Virus record (IMG/VR): IMGVR_UViG_3300020576_006124
Location: 1-64,000 of that record
Source of the DNA: a virus
Taxonomy: Duplodnaviria; Caudoviricetes
Direction: 5' to 3' (one strand)
DNA length: 64,000 nt
Both the position numbers and the translations under genes were made by a program. Numbering within the stretch: the stretch's first letter is position 1; each line of letters begins with the position of its first letter. The notes under the pieces were generated by a model. It ran no database searches. It was not told where the DNA came from and saw only the letters and a program-made list of their open reading frames with translations. Below are positions 29,187 to 38,970 of this stretch, one piece after another.

Positions 29187-29543
29187 ATGAAGAAACTCAT
29201 CCCTCTTATCATCCTTGTTAGCTCGTTGGCTACTTTTGCCTTTGCTAACGAACTGACCCTGAAGCCCTTAGCTCTTCGAGATTTCTCCAATGGAGAATGG
29301 AGAGTCGGATTTGCTGGGGATCTCTCAAGTACACCTAAGAGATTTATGCCGCAATTCTTTGTTGCCTCAAATCCAACCAACTGGGAAAAGCCTTTTGCTG
29401 GACTTGCGTTGTCTACTAAGATTTATAATCGAGGTTGGGCCAATGTAAGTGCTGTAGTAGGTTACTCTGTCAATATTTCCAATCTCAAAAGCCTAAGTGA
29501 AGGTCGATGGGGCTATGGAGCAGAGTTTACCTTTAAGTTTTAA
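29187..29543 (+). CDS. exported beta-rich protein, putative outer-membrane protein
   Basis: Signal peptide ending AFA; alternating beta pattern; C-terminal WGYGAEFTFKF. Confidence 0.6.
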   Translation: MKKLIPLIILVSSLATFAFANELTLKPLALRDFSNGEWRVGFAGDLSSTPKRFMPQFFVASNPTNWEKPFAGLALSTKIYNRGWANVSAVVGYSVNISNLKSLSEGRWGYGAEFTFKF

Positions 29544-29560: not shown

Positions 29561-30037
29561 ATGAAGTGCCAGAAGTTTAACTTTATCGAAGCCCTACCTG
29601 CACAGAGAGGGACTAGAGGAGTAAAAAGTCTGGCACTTCTCTACAAAGAAAGTGATAGTAAAGCAGTTAATAATTACTATCTAAATCTCTGTAAGAGACT
29701 ACGGAAGCTTAACAACAAGGCTAAGGCATTATCTAGTAAGAATATAAAAAAGGTAAAAACTCTTAGCCTATTCTCTAATAATTTTTTCTTATATGATGAT
29801 ATTTATAAGAAATATTTCTTTATCTCACCCTTTCCTATATTAACTTTAAAGAATTTGGAGTTTGATGAGCCCCCCTTATATACTAAGGTTCTTCAGAAGA
29901 GTGATTTTCCCGAAAGCTTTCTTGAAAAGTATTATAAGTATAAAGAGCTTTGTTATGAATTAAGGAAAGTTATCAGTGAGGTTTCTTCAAATGAAAAGTA
30001 CCATACTTCAATTAGGTTTGGTAAGGATAGCACCTAA
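29561..30037 (+). CDS. hypothetical protein
   Basis: 158-aa ORF. Confidence 0.5.
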   Translation: MKCQKFNFIEALPAQRGTRGVKSLALLYKESDSKAVNNYYLNLCKRLRKLNNKAKALSSKNIKKVKTLSLFSNNFFLYDDIYKKYFFISPFPILTLKNLEFDEPPLYTKVLQKSDFPESFLEKYYKYKELCYELRKVISEVSSNEKYHTSIRFGKDST

Positions 30038-30527
30038 AGAAAAGGGAAGAAATGATCATCTTCTCTTCTATCTAAAGATTGAAACAGAATTATTAAAAAT
30101 AATGTGTAAAAATACAATCCCTTCTTCAATCTTGGGGTTATTAAAGCGGTTGATCGACATGAAAATGAAAAAAGCAGTCCTATTTATGTTGCTATTTCTT
30201 CCCTCAATTATAAAGGCCTATGATGGGTCTGTTTACTCTAATTCTCTTCACGGCTCTCAGGTAGCTTCTTCTAGAGGATATTACGATAGAAATAGATTAA
30301 CCTGTGCTACAGGGTCAGAGTTTAAACTAGGTACTAAACTAAGAATTACATACAAAAACAGATCCGTTATAGTTGTAGTCAACGATAGAATCGGAAGAAG
30401 ATTTTATGGAAAAAGAATAGATTTAAGTGGAAAAGCCTTTAAACAGCTTTATCCAAAATATAATTTTAGTGATAAGACAGGTACCCTACTAAAGAATATT
30501 AAAGTAGAAAAACTCACTAACCCCTAA
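29976..30527 (+). CDS. RlpA-like double-psi beta-barrel lytic transglycosylase (true start probably near 30159)
   Basis: LTCA...F.LGTKLRIT...RSVIVVVNDR.......IDLS..AF..L; signal-like MKKAVLFMLLFL. Confidence 0.85.
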   Translation: MRFLQMKSTILQLGLVRIAPKEKGRNDHLLFYLKIETELLKIMCKNTIPSSILGLLKRLIDMKMKKAVLFMLLFLPSIIKAYDGSVYSNSLHGSQVASSRGYYDRNRLTCATGSEFKLGTKLRITYKNRSVIVVVNDRIGRRFYGKRIDLSGKAFKQLYPKYNFSDKTGTLLKNIKVEKLTNP

Positions 30528-31369
30528 TGGATCTGGATCTCCTTCTTTCTACAATTAAAAATTCTCATCAAATACAAATTATAGAGGAAAAAGATGAGGA
30601 ACAGGAGCGCTGTTTAATAGATGGGGTGTCTTTTTGCCCTAAGACAAGGATATTAAACATATCACCAGAAGTATCCACAATCTTTTATCAAGACGATAGT
30701 GCTACCCTTAAACACTTACTTGTACACGAAGAAATTGCCATTAGTAACAAGGATCTTTGGCAAGAAGATTGTGAAAAATTAAAAGAAACTATCTTAACAA
30801 GACCTGATAAGGAACGGATTCATGATCTCTACCCAAAGAAGATAGATTTCCCCATTACTAAGGATTTATCTATTAAGCCTTCTTTAAGTATCTTTACCTT
30901 TAGGTATAAATCTCCGGGGCATCCAATTCCGGGAGGAAATTCTCTAGTTACTGCTTCCTTCGCAGCGAGCAAGACACCAAGTTCTTGCCTCCAAATGCCT
31001 CTCCTAGATGATAGTGGTCTTTACTTCTTAGTTCCTTCCTATTCTCTATGCCATAAATACAGAGAAGAGAGGTTCTCTGTATTTGCGCTCTCAAGCCAAC
31101 TTGATAAGGCTTATTCAAACTTTCTAGAACATCAAAATGACCCAGACTACTTTAGAAAGATTTTTTCTTATCTAAAAAGAAAAGAAGAATCTACTTTGTA
31201 CTATTTAAAGGGGTTTAGATGTGAATTTTACTCGGGCTTAATCGGAGAAGTTAGCTCTCAAGTAAATCCAATTGTATTTCCATTATTTTCTATGGAGGAT
31301 TATCTCTTGAATAAAATGCCTATTGAAGCTAAAAACTTAGAGATACTATCTATTTTAGAGCAGCTATGA
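30527..31369 (+). CDS. Cys-Glu paralogue family member 1
   Basis: YYLKGFRCEFY...NPIVFPLFSMEDYLL...LSILEQL. Confidence 0.6.
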   Translation: MDLDLLLSTIKNSHQIQIIEEKDEEQERCLIDGVSFCPKTRILNISPEVSTIFYQDDSATLKHLLVHEEIAISNKDLWQEDCEKLKETILTRPDKERIHDLYPKKIDFPITKDLSIKPSLSIFTFRYKSPGHPIPGGNSLVTASFAASKTPSSCLQMPLLDDSGLYFLVPSYSLCHKYREERFSVFALSSQLDKAYSNFLEHQNDPDYFRKIFSYLKRKEESTLYYLKGFRCEFYSGLIGEVSSQVNPIVFPLFSMEDYLLNKMPIEAKNLEILSILEQL

Positions 31370-32073
31370 TACAAATTAAGTCTAAGCATCCCTTCACGAA
31401 TAATATTTCTGGTACCTTTACTATTATAAATAATCGAATACAAGTAGTTTCTCCATTTTCTTACCAGAATACACTTGGTAATGTATCTGATATCGTTAAT
31501 ACTCTTTCCTTTACTCCAAGCCAGAATTTGGTATGGGAGGAAAAGCCCGAGGATTTTTTGCCCCTTGTAAGATTAGCGGATCTTAGGTCATTTGAATCTA
31601 TAACTCCCTCAATAAGTTTAATAATCCTAGAAGGTGGTTCATCTTTTGGCTTTTTATTAGATGTTAATAAACACATCCGTCTAACGGATAAACCCGTTTT
31701 AGTTTTAGGCACTTTTACTATTTCCTCTACTTTTAGAGATAAGATTCAATTAACAACTCCAGAGCTTATAAGGAATTCTCTTCTCATTAGTATTAAAGGA
31801 TCCAAGACCCTATCTCCAGTTTATAAAAAACTATTTGAGGGACTAGATAACAATGAAGCCATCCTGGTTAAGGGACCTAAGTGTGAATGGTTAGAGAATC
31901 TTAGGGTTAAAGGAAAAGGACATATAGCTAATCAGGTAAATTTATTCAAACCCAGTATAAGAACACTAGAAACATTTGCAATTCAAAATGATTTGAGATT
32001 AGGCAATCTATCTCAACCAACTAAGATAGATTTATATTCAAAACATCTTTTAGATTTAATAGAAGTCCTATGA
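31366..32073 (+). CDS. Cys-Glu paralogue family member 2
   Basis: EAILVKGPKCEWL...NQVNLFKPSIRTLETF...LIEVL. Confidence 0.7.
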   Translation: MIQIKSKHPFTNNISGTFTIINNRIQVVSPFSYQNTLGNVSDIVNTLSFTPSQNLVWEEKPEDFLPLVRLADLRSFESITPSISLIILEGGSSFGFLLDVNKHIRLTDKPVLVLGTFTISSTFRDKIQLTTPELIRNSLLISIKGSKTLSPVYKKLFEGLDNNEAILVKGPKCEWLENLRVKGKGHIANQVNLFKPSIRTLETFAIQNDLRLGNLSQPTKIDLYSKHLLDLIEVL

Positions 32074-32801
32074 TGCAGATTGAAGCAAAACACCTTTTTC
32101 CGGAGAGAGCCAAGCATCTTATTACTAAATTAAATCTAAACAAAGAGGGAGTAATCAATAAAGAAGGTTTTAATAAAGCTAAGAGCATTCTAGAAACCAC
32201 AACATTCTGGCATAATGATCAGAAAGGTGGTATAGAATCTTTCTTACCAATCATTACTCCTAAATTTCCAGAATATAAATCCACCCAATTAGATTTTATC
32301 CTTAGTTCTATCTCAGGTATTGTATTAAAAGGAGAATATGCTTACTATGGGAAAAGGTTCGATACCCCTTCTATTATCTTAAATCATTCCCCAGTTCTAG
32401 TACTCCCTACTTTCGTTTTGATTCCTGGTCGCCAAGAGGATTACTACCCTTTTACCTTAACTTTAACTACTAAAGAATTAATAAGAGAGTCCGTACTGAT
32501 TTCCCTTAATAACGACGGGGATCTTAAAAGTACTTCAATAACAGATGATTACCTGGAAAAGTTAGGACAATTAGATGAAAGAGAGGCTATCTTAGTTAAA
32601 GGCCCTACTTGTGAATGGATTAAAGGTCTAAGGGAGATTAGCCAAAGCCATAATACAAATCAGGTAGATTTATTTGAACCCTGTGTAAGAACTTTAGAAA
32701 TGTTCTGCATTCAAAACAATTTTACTTGTAAAGGACAGCAATTAAATGAACGCATACAGCTTCCCTATAACATTCTCGAAAGTCTCTTTGAGTTTCTATG
32801 A
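32070..32801 (+). CDS. Cys-Glu paralogue family member 3
   Basis: EAILVKGPTCEWI...NQVDLFEPCVRTLEMF...LFEFL. Confidence 0.7.
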   Translation: MMQIEAKHLFPERAKHLITKLNLNKEGVINKEGFNKAKSILETTTFWHNDQKGGIESFLPIITPKFPEYKSTQLDFILSSISGIVLKGEYAYYGKRFDTPSIILNHSPVLVLPTFVLIPGRQEDYYPFTLTLTTKELIRESVLISLNNDGDLKSTSITDDYLEKLGQLDEREAILVKGPTCEWIKGLREISQSHNTNQVDLFEPCVRTLEMFCIQNNFTCKGQQLNERIQLPYNILESLFEFL

Positions 32802-33421
32802 GTACGGATTTTAATTCTCTTTCTGGGATTGATATAAGCTTAGTAGGGGATAGAATTGAGATTAGAAGCAGATTTTATCCACTTTCTCCTGTCATCCATG
32901 CTAGATTTATTTGCGCGGGATTAATAAGTACTTCTACCCCTATACCTGGAGTAGAACTAAATATTAACGACGTTTCTTGTACTATTTCAGAGTGTGTCTT
33001 CTTCATTCCTTTTGCTGATAGTAAAGAAACATTTATGGAAGAAGATTTACATATAGTTCCTGGATTTTTAGCTAAAAATCCAAATAATGGAAATCATATT
33101 TTAGGTTTTTCGACAAAAAAATTGATACTTAATAATTCTATACATCGTTCTGAGAACATACCTAGGGAAAAGATTAGTCCTTATCTTTCTAGATTCTCAG
33201 ATTCAGATCTTATTTTTATAAAAAGCAAAGAATGTGAATATGACTCAGGTTACTTTGATTCAAGCTGTCACTATATCGCACAGAAGACTTACTTAGAACC
33301 ATTCCCTAGAACGGTAGAAGAATTTGTCCTAGGTTACTTAGAAAGACCTTTTGAGGGGAAGAAACCTTCCCCAAAATTAAAGGTAGCAAAAGAACTAGGT
33401 GAATTAATAGAGATCCTTTAG
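32798..33421 (+). CDS. Cys-Glu paralogue family member 4
   Basis: DLIFIKSKECEY...YLEPFPRTVEEF...LIEIL. Confidence 0.65.
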   Translation: MSTDFNSLSGIDISLVGDRIEIRSRFYPLSPVIHARFICAGLISTSTPIPGVELNINDVSCTISECVFFIPFADSKETFMEEDLHIVPGFLAKNPNNGNHILGFSTKKLILNNSIHRSENIPREKISPYLSRFSDSDLIFIKSKECEYDSGYFDSSCHYIAQKTYLEPFPRTVEEFVLGYLERPFEGKKPSPKLKVAKELGELIEIL

Positions 33422-33478
33422 TACAATTTTTCTTGGACAGTCGAAAGACTGGTCTTCGGAGATAAAAAAAACGAAACT

Positions 33479-33916
33479 ATGAATAGCTACTCTAGCAATT
33501 CCCGAGTCACGATTTTTGTGACTGCGGGTAAGGGCTCTACAACGCCCGAAGTTCTTTCTCTTAGTGATCTGGGAGTTGACCCAGCTAACTACACTGCAGC
33601 GACTGCCAATCAGTCTATTCAGGAGAAGATGGTGGAACTCATCGTCGAAAATCCTAATTTGACCGCTGATGCTTTGACTAAGCTTGCCCAAGCAAGTCAG
33701 GCTCTGGATGGGGCAGACCCCTCTAAGCTTCTCCCTGCAAAGGTTGTGGATGCTGTTTACGATCGACTCACTACGCACAGCCTCTATCAAGGAGCTACAG
33801 CAGAAAAGAAGCTTCAGGTTAAGAAGGGGGATCTTCAAATCTCTCAGAACCCCCACCCAACCAATCCTGATCTGTCAACCTTTACAATTACGGTTCCCAG
33901 TACCTGGGGATTCTAA
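33479..33916 (+). CDS. candidate ubiquitin-like modifier protein
   Basis: N-terminal beta strand RVTIFV; C-terminal strand and tail FTITVPSTWG-F; close to the ThiF gene. Confidence 0.45.
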   Translation: MNSYSSNSRVTIFVTAGKGSTTPEVLSLSDLGVDPANYTAATANQSIQEKMVELIVENPNLTADALTKLAQASQALDGADPSKLLPAKVVDAVYDRLTTHSLYQGATAEKKLQVKKGDLQISQNPHPTNPDLSTFTITVPSTWGF

Positions 33917-33932
33917 TCTAGAGGAAATGGAT

Positions 33933-33958
33933 TTGGGGGGAGGTAATACTCCCCCCAA
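33933..33958 (+). terminator. strong stem-loop after the Ubl-like gene (terminator or mRNA stabiliser)
   Basis: Perfect 10-bp stem TTGGGGGGAG-GTAATA-CTCCCCCCAA; no clear U-tract. Confidence 0.6.
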
Positions 33959-33990
33959 CCAGAGCTTTAAAGCAGGAGTGGTATAACCAA

Positions 33991-34716
33991 ATGAATCTAG
34001 ATCTAGTCTTCAAGACTTACCAAAAAAATCCAAACGCCATTTCAGGGAATTTTATCCACGGTAGCTTCTCTAGTACTGCTCTTCATCCTTTTTTTAATAG
34101 CGGACTAGATGAGGTTATTGAATCTATTAATCAAACTTTCAGGGGAGAGTTTAAGTCTGATGTGGTTCCCTGCTTTGGGTTCTATTTCAACGACGGGACA
34201 TCTTCACTGCATGCAGCTGCGAAACTAAATAAGTGTACCGTTATAGATTTTAGTTTAGTGGAGAAGGAGAACCTTTGTCCCTTTGCCGTTAGTAAAGGCT
34301 CTTCCCTTCCCAAAAACTATAAGATTACCTGCAACGAGAAAAGTTGTTTATTTGCGGGGAGGGCTTACATTATTAACCCTATCCATCTAGAGAGTAATAC
34401 TAGATTGGGATTCTATATGATCGCTCATATAGATGAAGTATCAAAATTCTATAACGATTTTGTCTCTGAGGAGTATTCAAATAGGGTGATAGAGACGTTT
34501 AAGGGCGAAGAATGGGTATATATCAGCTCTACCAACTGTGAGAGAGTTACTCCTAGTAGTAAACAAGAATCTATTCATTTACTTAATCCTATAGACTACC
34601 CATTTACTCCTTACAATTACTTAATATCGAGAGCTCTACTACAAGCTGAAGTAATAAAACCTATATCTTTTAAAGACTTGGGGTTACTAGCTGAATTGGC
34701 TAGTGTATTGGGTTAG
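33991..34716 (+). CDS. Cys-Glu paralogue family member 5
   Basis: MNLDL start (cf. MDLDL of 30527); WVYISSTNCERV...NPIDYPFTPYNYL...LAELASVL. Confidence 0.55.
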   Translation: MNLDLVFKTYQKNPNAISGNFIHGSFSSTALHPFFNSGLDEVIESINQTFRGEFKSDVVPCFGFYFNDGTSSLHAAAKLNKCTVIDFSLVEKENLCPFAVSKGSSLPKNYKITCNEKSCLFAGRAYIINPIHLESNTRLGFYMIAHIDEVSKFYNDFVSEEYSNRVIETFKGEEWVYISSTNCERVTPSSKQESIHLLNPIDYPFTPYNYLISRALLQAEVIKPISFKDLGLLAELASVLG

Positions 34717-34724
34717 TCAAAGAA

Positions 34725-35495
34725 ATGAATGTACTTGTCATTGGAAGTGGTGCCGTTGGAAGTTTTGCAGTTAATTATATTGCAAGACTTTCTAGGACTC
34801 AGAATTTACCATTAGCTCTCGTTTTAGCAGACTTTGATACTGTCGAAGAGAGAAATGTTTATAGTCAGGACTTTACCTTTGAGGATATAGGAAAGAATAA
34901 GGCAGAAGTTACTGCTAAGAAAGCCTCAGAGTACATTAACAGCATAACTGCCTTTCCTGAGAAGGTAACCCCTGAAAACTTAAAGTCTTTACATGAAGAG
35001 TATAACTTCGATTGTATAGTTATCACGGTAGATAACCAATTTTCCCGAGTAGTTCTTAACACAGCTGGAACCATGGGTCTAAAAATTCCAGTACTACATT
35101 CTTCCATAAACTTAAATGGTACTGGTCAAGTATCTTGGTCCTACTTTAGCTCAGCTAAAAACTGTTATAGGTCTTCTTGGCCGGAAGACCCGGATAAACT
35201 TACTGCGGAGCAGCTTACTTCTCTTATGAGCCCAGAGAAAACCTCATCTCCTCCCCCTTGTGAGTTATTCCCTTTTGTACCTCTGATTCAAACTGCCGCT
35301 ATGGAGACAGCTTTGTCCTTGAGCACCTTTATAGGAAATGACCTTCATAAGGAAGTACTAAAGGTTCTTCGGGATAAAGGTACTCCCGAAGAAACTCTCC
35401 AAAATCTACCTACTAGTACCAAAGGATTTATGCTATCGAGAATTATCTCATTTAACACTAGTACCCTAACAGATCTTTTTCACCAAGATGCCTAA
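34725..35495 (+). CDS. ThiF/MoeB/E1-family adenylyltransferase
   Basis: VLVIGSGAVGS, ADFDTVEERNV.SQ, IGKNKAE, VDN..SR; candidate catalytic Cys in PPPCEL. Confidence 0.9.
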   Translation: MNVLVIGSGAVGSFAVNYIARLSRTQNLPLALVLADFDTVEERNVYSQDFTFEDIGKNKAEVTAKKASEYINSITAFPEKVTPENLKSLHEEYNFDCIVITVDNQFSRVVLNTAGTMGLKIPVLHSSINLNGTGQVSWSYFSSAKNCYRSSWPEDPDKLTAEQLTSLMSPEKTSSPPPCELFPFVPLIQTAAMETALSLSTFIGNDLHKEVLKVLRDKGTPEETLQNLPTSTKGFMLSRIISFNTSTLTDLFHQDA

Positions 35496-37818
35496 AAAAA
35501 AGAGTAAATTCGGCAATAAGTCTAAAATTCATTCTACAGAAAGTAAAAATAATATACCACAAAAAAAAAGAAAAAACAGAAGGTACGAAGATTTGAGCTA
35601 CATCGAAGAATTTTACGGTCAAGGGAATCACGGGATGCATACAACTACTCACTACTACTCATCTAAGAAATGTAGAGTATTTGGAGTATGTGCAGAGGAG
35701 ACCCCTGATCAGATTATTTTCTGTGATGGATACTCCAACTATAAAGAGGAGGAGTTACGAAAACAACTAGCCATTCATTTCAAGTTTAAAAACTACGCTT
35801 GGCCCGATGGTACAAATTTTCAGGTTTTCATCGTACCTAAAAAGAATCTTCCTTATATTAAAAAAATCTCTTCAAATAAAAGTGTCCTTTGCTGTGCCCA
35901 TGACGGTACTAAGGCTTATTTAAAGGCACATCTCGGAATTGAATTACAGTCCTCTGATAGGGATTGGTACTGTAATCACCCACAGACAGAAAGTAGTGGT
36001 CTTCCAGCACATTTTACCTTCCCTGTAATTCAATCTCTGATTAAGCCTTACAATATAGGTTTCTCAGAAATAATGGTAAAGATTCCTATGAATCTTGCCT
36101 TCCCTGAAGGATTTACTTTCCAGGATTTATACGGAAGTTATATGGAAGCCCTTGGTTGGCATCCTCTTTCTATTGCTTTATGTAATACAATTTCTGAGCC
36201 TACTCACGAAAATATTATAAACCTTCTAGAGCAAACCTTAAAAGAGATTCAATCTAATGAGTCCTATAGTGATCTTATTAAAGATAAACTAAGTGAACCG
36301 TATAGAAACGCTATAAAAGCTCAAAAAACAGCTCGGTTCACTTTCTTTAAAGAGGATCAAGAAGTCTGGGGTAAAGCATGGGTCATTACTCGGGAAGGGG
36401 TAGCTAATGGAAGAGGGGGTGTTGGACACGCTGAGTATATGGCTGTTAGAGAAAGAAAATCTAATATCTATCAGGCATTTAGATTTGATCACCTAAGTAA
36501 CTGCAATTACTCTTCAGAGCCTTTCCTTTTAGATTATGATCTGGAACAAAACTATACCTATCAAATAGATCCAGACCTTATCATGATTGAACAGGTCAAC
36601 AGCAAGGGAGAATTAGAGTTAAAGAAACTACAGTTCATGATTAACTCTTCCTACTCTCCAAATAATAGCAGTAATGTTATCTACGGAAGGGGGAACAGTG
36701 GTTCAACCGGGGCAGCTTATCATCCCTCTGTAACCGCAAACCCCTTAGAAGGAAGTCTAGACGCTTACGAACTTGCTAAAACACTATTAGCAGAAAATGA
36801 GAATAGTAAAATTACTAGGTCTCTTTCTTCTAATAGCCCTTTGACTGTAACCCACTTCAACGTTGAAGATACTGCAGTAGAAGCTCAGTCGGGAATGTTC
36901 GATTTCGTTAACTCTACTGGGTACAATCTATTTGAAAATATGATGGAAGATTATCTTGATCCTAAAGACCTTCCGAATTTACTCCCACTATATTATATAG
37001 ATGTAGACACTCAGATTTCCGATTTGAGTACCCTTGATAAAATCTACCAATCCTTTGCTTTGGGTTCAGTGAACGAAAGTGGTCTAAGGTCTGTATTTAA
37101 GTCTATAAAGGATAGTGTTTTCTATGAAACATGCTCTCCTGCTTCTTTTTTATGGGTAATGGATGAGAATCTCCCTAGAGAGATTAACTCTGAGTTTTTG
37201 AGAGTTCTTACTAAAGAGTGGGAAGAAGTTGCCTTTCCTTATATCTTAAAAGAATCTTTTGGGCCAAGTAATTCCTCAGAATTCTTTAACCTAAAGAAAT
37301 CTATTACCTCTATTCCTAATATTAAGTCAATCAAGGCTTCTACGGAGATCTTAGAGTCTAAGCTGGGAACTAACTTTATTGCATTTTTGCATACAAAAAA
37401 TCATAGACCTGACTTACTCTCATGTTGGAGTTCTCCAATGAGTCCTAAGTCTCAATTTGAGTATTTTAAATTATCTGTAGTTAATGGCTTCTTGAAACTT
37501 TTAGACACCTTTAGTGAATCATTAATTAGTGACTGTGAAGACCTATCCTGTACTACAGAAGATATAATAAATTCTTATTATGATAATTTTAGAGCAATAC
37601 TTGCTAATATGCCTGGTAAATACCGGATAGAAGATAGTGAAGAGTTTGTATCCAATCTTGGTAACGCTGCTAGGTATTATGATGTATATTATTTTGCTGT
37701 AGCTGTTTTAGCCCTGTCTGATAATCCAGATATATGTTCCCTAAGACATAAACTAGCAAGCATTCTTCATATCTTAATTTTTAATGTAACTGATTTTTCC
37801 ACTACAGGAGTTTGTTAA
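35488..37818 (+). CDS. large hypothetical protein overlapping the E1 gene
   Basis: 776-aa ORF with basic N-terminal tail; no family recognised. Confidence 0.7.
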   Translation: MPKKKSKFGNKSKIHSTESKNNIPQKKRKNRRYEDLSYIEEFYGQGNHGMHTTTHYYSSKKCRVFGVCAEETPDQIIFCDGYSNYKEEELRKQLAIHFKFKNYAWPDGTNFQVFIVPKKNLPYIKKISSNKSVLCCAHDGTKAYLKAHLGIELQSSDRDWYCNHPQTESSGLPAHFTFPVIQSLIKPYNIGFSEIMVKIPMNLAFPEGFTFQDLYGSYMEALGWHPLSIALCNTISEPTHENIINLLEQTLKEIQSNESYSDLIKDKLSEPYRNAIKAQKTARFTFFKEDQEVWGKAWVITREGVANGRGGVGHAEYMAVRERKSNIYQAFRFDHLSNCNYSSEPFLLDYDLEQNYTYQIDPDLIMIEQVNSKGELELKKLQFMINSSYSPNNSSNVIYGRGNSGSTGAAYHPSVTANPLEGSLDAYELAKTLLAENENSKITRSLSSNSPLTVTHFNVEDTAVEAQSGMFDFVNSTGYNLFENMMEDYLDPKDLPNLLPLYYIDVDTQISDLSTLDKIYQSFALGSVNESGLRSVFKSIKDSVFYETCSPASFLWVMDENLPREINSEFLRVLTKEWEEVAFPYILKESFGPSNSSEFFNLKKSITSIPNIKSIKASTEILESKLGTNFIAFLHTKNHRPDLLSCWSSPMSPKSQFEYFKLSVVNGFLKLLDTFSESLISDCEDLSCTTEDIINSYYDNFRAILANMPGKYRIEDSEEFVSNLGNAARYYDVYYFAVAVLALSDNPDICSLRHKLASILHILIFNVTDFSTTGVC

Positions 37819-37824
37819 AACGAA

Positions 37825-38970
37825 TTGAACCTACATAAACTTGATATAATTTACGACAAAGGTAAGGTCTCATCCTTTGGGTTCAGGGACCTTACCTTCC
37901 TTGGTAACTACTCCATTTTAGGGAGTAGGATGTACTCTCAACCTAAGGCTAGAGTCCTGGACTATGGTCATGCTCTCCCCATAATCAATGCCAATATGTC
38001 TAATATAGCTGGTATTGATATGATTAAGGCTCTACTTATCAACGAGTGTTTTGCCAGCACATCGAGATTTCACTGGAAAAACGAAGACTACAAGTCTAAA
38101 CTACAAAGCTTGATAGAAAGTAACCCTGAGTATCTTTCTAATCTATTCTTTAGTATTGGTGCTTCTTCAGAAGACCTAAGAATCCTAAAAGAGTTTTGTC
38201 ATAAGATCTACCTAACTGTATTAAATAAACTACCACATACAAACTATAAATTTAACCTTCTTATTGATGTTGCTCATGCTAACAGCATTGCCGTAAGCAA
38301 CTTTATGAAGAATAATACCTTTGACGAGTTTAATATTTTCATAGGCAATTACTTTGGCCATGAATATAAAGAATTCGACAGATTATACTCTTTAGGCATA
38401 AAAGGTATTAGAGTAGGGATAGGCCAAGGAGGAAGTTGTCTTACAACTAATGGAACAACATTCGGACTTCCTACCCTAACTTCTGTATACCTTGCTGACC
38501 GATGGAGAAGAGAAAAGGGAATAAATCCCTCAGACTTCATTATTATTGCTGATGGTGGTATTACTGGCCCTGGAGACATTATTAAGTGTTTACATTTTGG
38601 GGCTAATATAGTCTGTCTTGGATCGTATCTTTCAGATTGTAAAGAAAGACCCGGAAGATTAAAAAGAGACTGGCTTAAATTTGGAAAACCTTACAAGGAA
38701 TTTTATGGAATGTCTTCTCACAAATCCATTAAGGAAAGAGTTGGGCTAGTAAGAGAAGGAATCTCCTCAGAGGGATTAGTTAAGAAGGTTTATATAAAGA
38801 CCGAGGTGGCTCATAAGGTATCTGATTTCGCTTCCTTTTTAAGATCTGCTATATCTTATGCTGGAGTTGAAACAGTAGATCATCTGCATCATAAGTGTGA
38901 CTTTGAGTTTATTAGCCCTAGTGTAGCAGCTTATAACGCGAGTAAAGATGAATTCCTTAGAAAGTACTAA
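37825..38970 (+). CDS. GMP reductase / IMP dehydrogenase family enzyme
   Basis: PIINANM, IDVAHA, RVGIGQGGSCLT, IIADGGI..PGDIIK, FYGMSS, SEG, LRSAISYAG; no CBS domains. Confidence 0.88.
   Translation: MNLHKLDIIYDKGKVSSFGFRDLTFLGNYSILGSRMYSQPKARVLDYGHALPIINANMSNIAGIDMIKALLINECFASTSRFHWKNEDYKSKLQSLIESNPEYLSNLFFSIGASSEDLRILKEFCHKIYLTVLNKLPHTNYKFNLLIDVAHANSIAVSNFMKNNTFDEFNIFIGNYFGHEYKEFDRLYSLGIKGIRVGIGQGGSCLTTNGTTFGLPTLTSVYLADRWRREKGINPSDFIIIADGGITGPGDIIKCLHFGANIVCLGSYLSDCKERPGRLKRDWLKFGKPYKEFYGMSSHKSIKERVGLVREGISSEGLVKKVYIKTEVAHKVSDFASFLRSAISYAGVETVDHLHHKCDFEFISPSVAAYNASKDEFLRKY

Follow-up and report, generated by a model that had tools for sequence, protein, structure and literature searches.

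The window described here comprises the first 64,000 nucleotides (nt) of a 197,239-nt IMG/VR record from an uncultured phage (IMGVR_UViG_3300020576_006124; completeness of 85% according to CheckV), and has a mean GC content of around 35%. From position 29976 to 38970 it carries a run of co-directional genes on the plus strand, overlapping or abutting one another, which includes an E1/ThiF-like adenylating enzyme, four or five members of a protein family with a shared Cys-Glu pair (the CE family; genes p1 to p5), and two orphan open reading frames (ORFs) of 145 and 776 amino acids (aa). The genes p1 to p4 overlap successively by ATGA, p5 is separated from the E1 gene by 8 nt, and the start of the 776-aa ORF falls within the final codons of the E1 gene, 8 nt ahead of its stop. 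CE genes flank the 145-aa ORF as well as the E1, and p5 lies between the two. The best explanation for this arrangement is a lineage-specific operon, organized around a minimal Cys-bearing E1 and a CE family found only in phages.

An earlier, sequence-only reading of the window proposed a phage ubiquitin-like conjugation system, consisting of the E1, a ubiquitin-like protein (Ubl), and five Cys-Glu paralogues. As a description of the genes, this reading was accurate. Every ORF that it listed was recovered at the same coordinates on the plus strand, and so was every motif that it quoted, namely KGFRCEF, KGPKCEW, KGPTCEW, KSKECEY, and SSTNCER in the CE proteins, PPPCEL in the E1, and ...PSTWGF at the end of the 145-aa ORF. 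It had also noticed that no thiamine, molybdenum cofactor, or sulfur-relay genes lie nearby, and the annotation of the region (Pfam, NCBIfam, and neighbouring genes) agrees that there are none near the operon.

A minimal E1-type enzyme

The gene at 34725..35495 (plus strand) encodes a protein of 256 aa that matches the Pfam ThiF family (PF00899) with 79.1 bits, against a cut-off of 28.1 (E 3.6e-22), and with 80.6 bits in the genome scan. Its closest solved structures are those of ThiF (1zud, 2.6e-8), Uba1, MoeB, and MccB, and among the PADLOC models it matches the Cap2-type E1-E2 proteins (8.6e-8) and, weakly, BilD. It falls below every NCBIfam equivalog cut-off, the highest scores being those for ThiF, MoeB, UbaA, MoeZ, and PRTRC ThiF. 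A search of 5.8e9 clusters returned only two orthologues, P0002 and P0003, with an identity of around 51%, and the nearest relatives beyond them are the ThiF-rhodanese fusions P0004-P0006. The orthologue alignment, when searched against IMG/VR, JGI metagenomes, and GTDB genomes, found distant ThiFs only.

An alignment of ten sequences, which comprises the window E1, its orthologues, and other small E1s from phages and bacteria, shows G7, G9, G12, D36, D38, N44, Q48, K59, and D103 to be invariant; the nucleotide-binding core of these enzymes (GxGxxG, DxD, Asn, Lys, and the Asp of the DN motif) is present. The crossover loop holds C179, within the motif PPPCEL. This residue is invariant among the orthologues (P0001-P0003) and aligns with a Cys of six other phage E1s, two of which (in loci L026 and L019) adjoin a ThiS-like Ubl ending in Gly-Gly. 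Two bacterial ThiF-type E1s have no Cys there, and one of them (L005) sits beside ThiS and ThiG. The conservation of C179 makes it a putative catalytic residue. The identification of this ORF as a clear ThiF/E1 protein with a Cys in PPPCEL, made from the letters of the sequence, is therefore confirmed by the Pfam match and by the invariance of the Cys in the orthologues.

Several elements of the E1 family are missing from this enzyme. The protein begins at beta-1, with only 7 open codons upstream, and has no N-terminal YxRQ (Arg-finger) helix; Ser47 occupies the Arg position of the N..RQ motif, and there is no CxxC zinc site. Given the absence of both the Arg-finger helix and the phosphate-binding Arg, adenylation by this protein is a putative activity. 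What its sequence confirms is that the phage owns a real but stripped-down E1-type enzyme, which defines a truncated clade lacking the Arg finger and would be of value even if the link with the CE family failed.

The Cys-Glu family

Sequence comparison confirms that the CE genes form a real family beyond chance, with evidence that is uneven between its members. Three of them are firmly placed: p2 (31366..32073, 235 aa, KGPKCEW) and p3 (32070..32801, 243 aa, KGPTCEW, with the pair at C181-E182) match each other by BLASTP at 3e-30, and p4 (32798..33421, 207 aa, KSKECEY) matches p3 at 1e-4 across the CE module and is the top match of the p2/p3 profile. The first gene of the series, p1 (30527..31369, 280 aa, KGFRCEF, with the pair at C232-E233), is a probable member, being the top non-member match of the p2/p3/p4 profile (E 0.025) and aligning with the family at the Cys-Glu pair and the C-terminal Leu helix. 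When members were left out of the profiles and the 1,527 ORFs of the genome were searched, p4 and p1 each came out as the top non-member, with E values of 0.025-0.06. The last gene, p5 (33991..34716, 241 aa), belongs to a divergent subfamily made up of p5, its orthologue P0009, and P0016, with the motif TNCER(V/T)TPSSK. It aligns with the p2/p3 type over the last 74 columns only, with Cys-Glu in register (hhalign E/P 0.024). It appears to share with p1-p4 no more than the C-terminal CE module, and their paralogy is plausible on these alignments. The earlier count of five paralogues thus stands firmly for p2, p3, and p4, probably for p1, and weakly for p5. All five genes are on the plus strand.

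The family is very small. Only five members were found outside the window by HMMER in 1.84e9 representatives (P0009, P0014, P0015, P0016, and P0017), scans of IMG/VR with the alignments of both CE subfamilies gave no matches, and profile searches of the 1,527 ORFs detected none in the rest of the 197-kb record. Throughout the ten sequences, Cys-Glu is invariant (10/10) and no other column is, while the C-terminal helix has two nearly invariant Leu and a His follows the Cys by around 12 residues in 8/10. The Cys is preceded by K(G/S)xx, with no HPN motif. The last ~79 residues share a mean identity of 25.6%, against 15-17% for the remainder, and a CE protein looks like a constant C-terminal module of ~80 aa attached to a variable N-terminal part of ~160 aa. 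Among the features of the family, the extreme C-terminus (L..L[IL][ED].L) ranks second in conservation; these tails end in a bulky Leu or Phe, and three members carry one more residue (G, K, or S) at the end.

The invariant C173 is the only Cys that p2 contains. This excludes a disulfide or a multi-Cys metal site and favours a role as nucleophile or attachment site. Metal binding by the conserved Cys, an objection that the sequence-only reading had raised against its own proposal, is therefore not the case.

An AlphaFold2 (AF2) model of p3, built on the ten-sequence CE alignment (pLDDT 66, pTM 0.68), is rich in beta strands, places the Cys in a low-confidence loop after strand 172-177, and predicts a helical C-terminal tail. 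It matches no known fold, either with Foldseek in PDB and BFVD (best E 0.2) or with an exhaustive VIA search (best Z 2.9). There is no UBC chain among these matches of a model at pLDDT 66 with a poorly modelled Cys loop, nor any MPN chain among the matches of this moderate-quality model, and ESM Atlas was uninformative for p3. An E2 identity was considered for the family and found no support: no Pfam family is common to the ten members even at E 10, the PDB holds no sequence match, the fold searches found nothing, the HPN motif is missing, and the E2 profile PF00179 has no match in the genome. A derivation from JAB proteins and a kinship with the Cys-proteins of other phage cassettes (PxPH-x6-CLG, see below) found no support either, as hhalign gave 0.06% against the Rpn11-like phage JAMM family and 0.06% against the Cys-protein family. 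The E2-like role that had been proposed for the paralogues is thus not borne out. The CE family is a tiny, clean candidate for a new fold with an obvious catalytic-site candidate, and this would be useful even if its link with the E1 failed.

Co-occurrence of the E1 and the CE family

The E1 orthologue P0002 and the CE members P0009, P0014, P0015, and P0017, which come from both subfamilies, are each recorded on a 13,208-nt JGI contig; P0016 is recorded on a contig of 13,768 nt. Judging from the shared size of 13,208 nt, those five genes almost certainly lie on one sister contig, so that the co-occurrence of E1 and CE genes appears to be conserved. The association between the paralogues and ThiF in relatives, whose absence the sequence-only reading would have counted against its proposal, is apparent in this E1 orthologue and the four CE members that accompany it.

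The 145-aa ORF and its GC-rich interval

Between p4 and p5, the interval 33422..33990 (plus strand) is GC-rich and strongly structured. Its GC content is 0.48, against 0.33-0.39 in the neighbouring genes, and its RNA fold z scores are -5.8 and -4.2 (-3.2 for the reverse strand), against +0.7 to -1.8 for the neighbouring genes; control GC-rich islands of the genome range from +1.5 to -2.9, with one exception. Such islands are frequent in the genome, mostly beyond 111 kb. The interval contains the orphan 145-aa ORF (33479..33916, plus strand) and, just after its stop, a 10-bp G+C hairpin (33934..33959). ORFs are open on both strands, with equal codon scores for sense and antisense; in the plus frame of the 145-aa ORF, GC1 > GC2 ~ GC3 and the translation is protein-like. 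The interval has no Rfam match, and IMG/VR contains no exact copy of the terminal hairpin. The interval may correspond to a highly structured mRNA for an abundant protein, or its function may lie mainly at the RNA level. Outside the window, the GC-rich controls brought up another 569-nt segment whose fold z is extreme (-6.25), at G000:C1:185000-185568.

The sequence-only reading had taken the 145-aa protein for the Ubl of the system, and this assignment found no support. The protein has no homologue in 5.8e9 clusters and no match in Pfam (ThiS/Ub), PHROG, PADLOC, or NCBIfam, and the ThiS family (PF02597) has no match anywhere in the genome. Compared with the ThiS-like Ubls of other phages, it is negative by BLASTP and reaches 0.2% by hhalign. 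Its tail, ...VPSTWGF, lacks Gly-Gly and has a single Gly, at position -2. A single-sequence AF2 model, with a pLDDT of 42.7, shows two N-terminal strands, three helices, and two C-terminal strands; this low-confidence model is the only basis for the statement that the protein ends in a beta strand. The fold matches to this poor model cover the three-helix core only (VIA, best Z 6.0), as in a helical bundle, and the ESM Atlas model, which scores 0.52, is uninformative. As a lead only, the VPSTWG-F tail resembles the tail VPAVKGG-R of a phage Ubl.

The 776-aa ORF

The orphan 776-aa ORF (35488..37818, plus strand) has a Lys/Arg-rich N-terminus (PKKKSKFGNKSK...KKRKNRR) and contains 14 Cys, one of them as its last residue. 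It has no match in Pfam, PHROG, PADLOC, NCBIfam, PDB, or cultured phages, and hhalign with the phage Cys-protein family gives 0.1%. Regarding the suggestion that this protein could be a substrate or the processing enzyme of the system, its overlap with the E1 stop is real, and the processing role found no JAB/JAMM signature in its favour. A deaminase was also considered for this ORF, based on the motif-like stretch HAEYMAV, and rejected as no PCxxC partner accompanies it.

Complete phage cassettes and known E1 systems

Complete cassettes around a small E1 are found in other phages. In the IMG/VR loci L012-L030, the recurrent order is Cys-protein, JAMM protein, and small E1, often together with a ThiS-like Ubl ending in Gly-Gly (examples are L026:7362-11247 and L019:8608-12400). 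The Cys-protein family has an invariant Cys in PxPH-x6-CLG, and is E2-like by this motif only. The JAMM protein is Rpn11-like, with the signature E..HxH..S..D and a PDB match to Rpn11 at E 3.9e-10, and the E1 is small, bears the Cys, and has the YxRQ helix. The Ubl of L026-L028 is a tandem SAMP2+ThiS protein that ends in VKGG-R, that of L019 ends in EGGGK, and a protein of L011 matches ThiS; L003 and L004 have ORFs ending in Gly-Gly with no Pfam match. In the literature searched, there is no paper describing the L012-L030 cassette and no description of a phage E1 with CE-type companions. The bacterial counterpart of these cassettes is the Bil system, BilABCD (Chambers et al. 2023, 10.1101/2023.09.26.559546). 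The virus Rctr197k (KX853510.1, L031; 4943-8615) encodes a ThiF-like E1 that has in common with the window E1 a truncated N-terminus and a TCE motif in the crossover loop; 3 kb upstream of this gene is an ORF of 132 aa containing a JAMM motif (HTHPx7SGTD).

Like the phage cassettes, the window has a small, phage-encoded E1 with a crossover Cys, a DFDxVEE.N...Q motif, and partner genes just upstream. It differs in that the JAMM protein, the Cys-protein, and the Ubl are replaced by the CE genes and the 145-aa and 776-aa orphans. The 197-kb record holds no JAB (PF14464), E2 (PF00179), or ThiS-like gene. Profiles of the cassette partners (JAMM, Cys-protein, and Ubl) find no match in these 197 kb, the best E of the JAMM profile being 2.4, and the partners have no detectable homology to the CE family or to the 145-aa or 776-aa ORF. 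If this is a conjugation system, its partners would thus have been replaced by unrelated proteins. The same holds for the trimming that the terminal Phe of the 145-aa protein was expected to need: across the record there is no JAB/JAMM gene or motif that would point to an enzyme removing it, and the HxH..S..D pattern occurs once only, inside a 2,199-aa ORF.

Among the enzymes with known functions, ThiF, MoeB, and UbaA share with the window E1 the GxGxxG and DxD motifs, the Asn, the Lys, and the Asp of the DN motif. As in ThiF/MoeB-like proteins, the crossover-loop Cys, which we take to be C184 in ThiF and C187 in MoeB, stands just before a P-x-x-(G/Q)-x-x-A helix. Contrary to these enzymes, the window E1 has neither the YxRQ helix, nor the Arg of N..RQ, nor CxxC, its crossover loop is ~17 residues longer, and it has no ThiS/MoaD partner. 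The similarity with the E1 domain of Cap2 from type II CBASS (8.6e-8) is restricted to the Rossmann core, and the window lacks the fused E2, the JAB protein, and the CD-NTase of the Cap2/Cap3 systems. Cap2 is nevertheless a known case in which an E1 activates a large protein other than a Ubl at its C-terminus (Jenson et al. 2023, PMC10097602).

The matches to MccB (1.6e-3) and TcdA (8e-5) are weak, and weaker than those to ThiF and MoeB; the window E1 also lacks the peptide-clamp domain of MccB. Since MccB and TcdA work without a Ubl, the E1 fold need not imply one. In autophagy, the tails of the modifiers are FG-R in Atg8, YG-L in GABARAP, and WG in Atg12, and the carriers Atg3 and Atg10 have no HPN motif. 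The TWG-F end of the 145-aa protein, with an aromatic residue and Gly followed by one residue, recalls the Atg7/Atg8/Atg12 system, as a lead only; contrary to that system, there is no beta-grasp evidence for the 145-aa ORF, the E1 is not Atg7-like, and there is no Atg4-like protease.

Proposed mechanism and alternative explanations

The leading reading, which we hold tentatively, is an acyl relay from the E1 to cysteine, with the CE proteins as diversified carriers or adaptors. We infer each of its chemical steps. As suggested by its family, the E1 would adenylate a carboxylate, which is probably the C-terminus of a protein, at the expense of ATP. The acyl group would be taken onto the crossover-loop C179, as the conservation of this residue suggests, and may then be handed on to the invariant Cys of the CE proteins, whose variable N-terminal parts would steer it to different targets. 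The CE proteins would be functional analogues of E2/E3, rather than homologues. The 145-aa ORF is a modifier candidate by position only, and the translationally coupled 776-aa protein could be a partner, a scaffold, or a target. In favour of such a relay are the invariant core residues and C179 of the E1, the invariant Cys-Glu pair with no second Cys in p2, the better conserved C-terminal module, the overlapping or abutting genes, and the record of an E1 orthologue and four CE members on the 13,208-nt contig; in addition, the neighbours of the E1 in other phage cassettes are its functional partners (JAMM, Cys-protein, and Ubl). Several points weigh against it. Neither the Arg-finger helix nor the canonical phosphate-binding Arg is present in the E1; no modifier is recognised, with no beta-grasp evidence for the 145-aa ORF from Pfam, hhalign, or the models; no small ORF near the E1 ends in Gly-Gly; and the CE model matches neither UBC nor any other thioester-carrier fold. 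Related phages are, moreover, collinear in any case, so that synteny between two of them lends little weight to a functional link.

About as likely as this relay is that the E1 and the CE family are not linked at all. The E1 would then act on a substrate from outside the operon, such as a peptide, a ThiS/MoaD-like protein of the host, or the carboxylate of a small molecule or nucleic acid, and the CE genes would be an unrelated multi-copy family, for example of Cys hydrolases or transferases or of anti-defence proteins. This would fit an E1 that scores best against ThiF, MoeB, UbaA, and MoeZ, and weakly against MccB and TcdA, which need no Ubl. It would also fit a 197-kb record with no Ubl, E2, or JAB, a CE fold unlike that of any conjugation enzyme, and neighbouring genes of nucleotide metabolism (ThyX-like and GMP-reductase-like). 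It is at odds, however, with the translational coupling throughout the block, with the position of p5 between the 145-aa ORF and the E1, with the equally narrow known distribution of both families and their joint presence on the 13,208-nt contig, and with a crossover Cys that aligns with those of other phage E1s and is missing from the two bacterial ThiF-type E1s. A further alternative concerns the interval 33422-33990 and is compatible with any of these readings: it is rather unlikely, though it deserves some weight, that this interval serves chiefly as a structured RNA, or that it is a highly expressed gene acquired on its own, instead of a modifier gene. The 145-aa ORF would in that case have no role in the chemistry of the E1. 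The GC of 0.48, the fold z scores of -5.8/-4.2, the ORFs on both strands with equal codon scores, the G+C hairpin after the stop, and the lack of a protein homologue in 5.8e9 clusters would agree with it, whereas the order GC1 > GC2 ~ GC3 in the plus frame, the protein-like translation, the frequency of GC-rich islands in the genome, and the lack of an Rfam family match argue against it.

It is improbable that the CE proteins are themselves the substrates of the E1, with their C-terminal tails adenylated and the proteins then ligated to targets, as precedented by the CD-NTases on which Cap2 acts in type II CBASS, or with the tails cyclised onto the proteins' own Cys. Even though the extreme C-terminus is so well conserved in the family and the E1 matches the Cap2-type E1-E2 models (8.6e-8), the tail is predicted to be helical, ends in a bulky Leu or Phe, and has an extra terminal residue in three members, features more in keeping with a docking helix than with a carboxylate that has to be exactly placed. 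Very improbable is a sulfur relay, in which the E1 would work as ThiF, MoeB, or MoeZ do and a persulfide borne by the CE Cys would serve the thio-modification of nucleotides, tRNA, or a cofactor. The ThiF-rhodanese fusions (P0004-P0006) as nearest non-orthologous relatives, the top family scores for ThiF, MoeB, and MoeZ, and the neighbouring genes acting on nucleotides would suit such a relay; the region and the genome, however, hold no gene for a sulfur-carrier Ubl, a cysteine desulfurase, a rhodanese, or a PP-loop protein, and five diverged carriers would be unprecedented.

Returning to the acyl relay, its most far-reaching form would be a conjugation system owned by the phage, in which the whole tool-kit of E2, E3, and deubiquitinase has been replaced by new-fold Cys-Glu carrier-ligases. 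We consider this unlikely. The modifier could be the 145-aa protein with its aromatic-Gly tail or some other C-terminus, and targets would be bound by an N-terminal domain particular to each carrier-ligase. The modifier cascade proposed by the sequence-only reading is partly supported: the phage E1 and the operonic CE family stand, while the Ubl, the E2-like role, and the trimming enzyme found no support, and the cascade is an analogy rather than a demonstrated system. In prokaryotes, E1-driven tagging has so far been a subject of work on sulfur transfer and on defence against phages (CBASS Cap2, Bil, and Bub). A phage E1 with a new, expanded family of one invariant cysteine as its sole conserved companions would point to thioester chemistry that arose independently of the UBC fold, and to an offensive use of tagging by phages. 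Were the conjugation reading true, the phage could tag several host or phage proteins during infection.

Genomic setting

The flanks of the operon contain a ThyX-like gene, a gene for an RlpA-like lipoprotein with a double-psi beta-barrel (DPBB) domain, a GMP-reductase-like gene, and several orphans. A Shine-Dalgarno sequence precedes only a few genes. The motif VCTCTATW occurs in the window about as often as expected (28 times, with 27.7 expected), and none of its occurrences is near the 145-aa ORF. Directly after the 776-aa ORF, the gene of the GMP-reductase/IMPDH family (37825-38970) begins with a TTG start; its best match is human GMPR2 (4.8e-28), and it is probably a nucleotide salvage gene outside the module. 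On the upstream side, the gene for the RlpA-like DPBB lipoprotein (29976-30527) has an internal start (MKKAVLFMLLF...), and a 118-aa ORF with a signal peptide (29187-29543) ends in ...AEFTFKF, which resembles the ending of an outer-membrane beta-barrel. Both of these proteins hint at a Gram-negative host.

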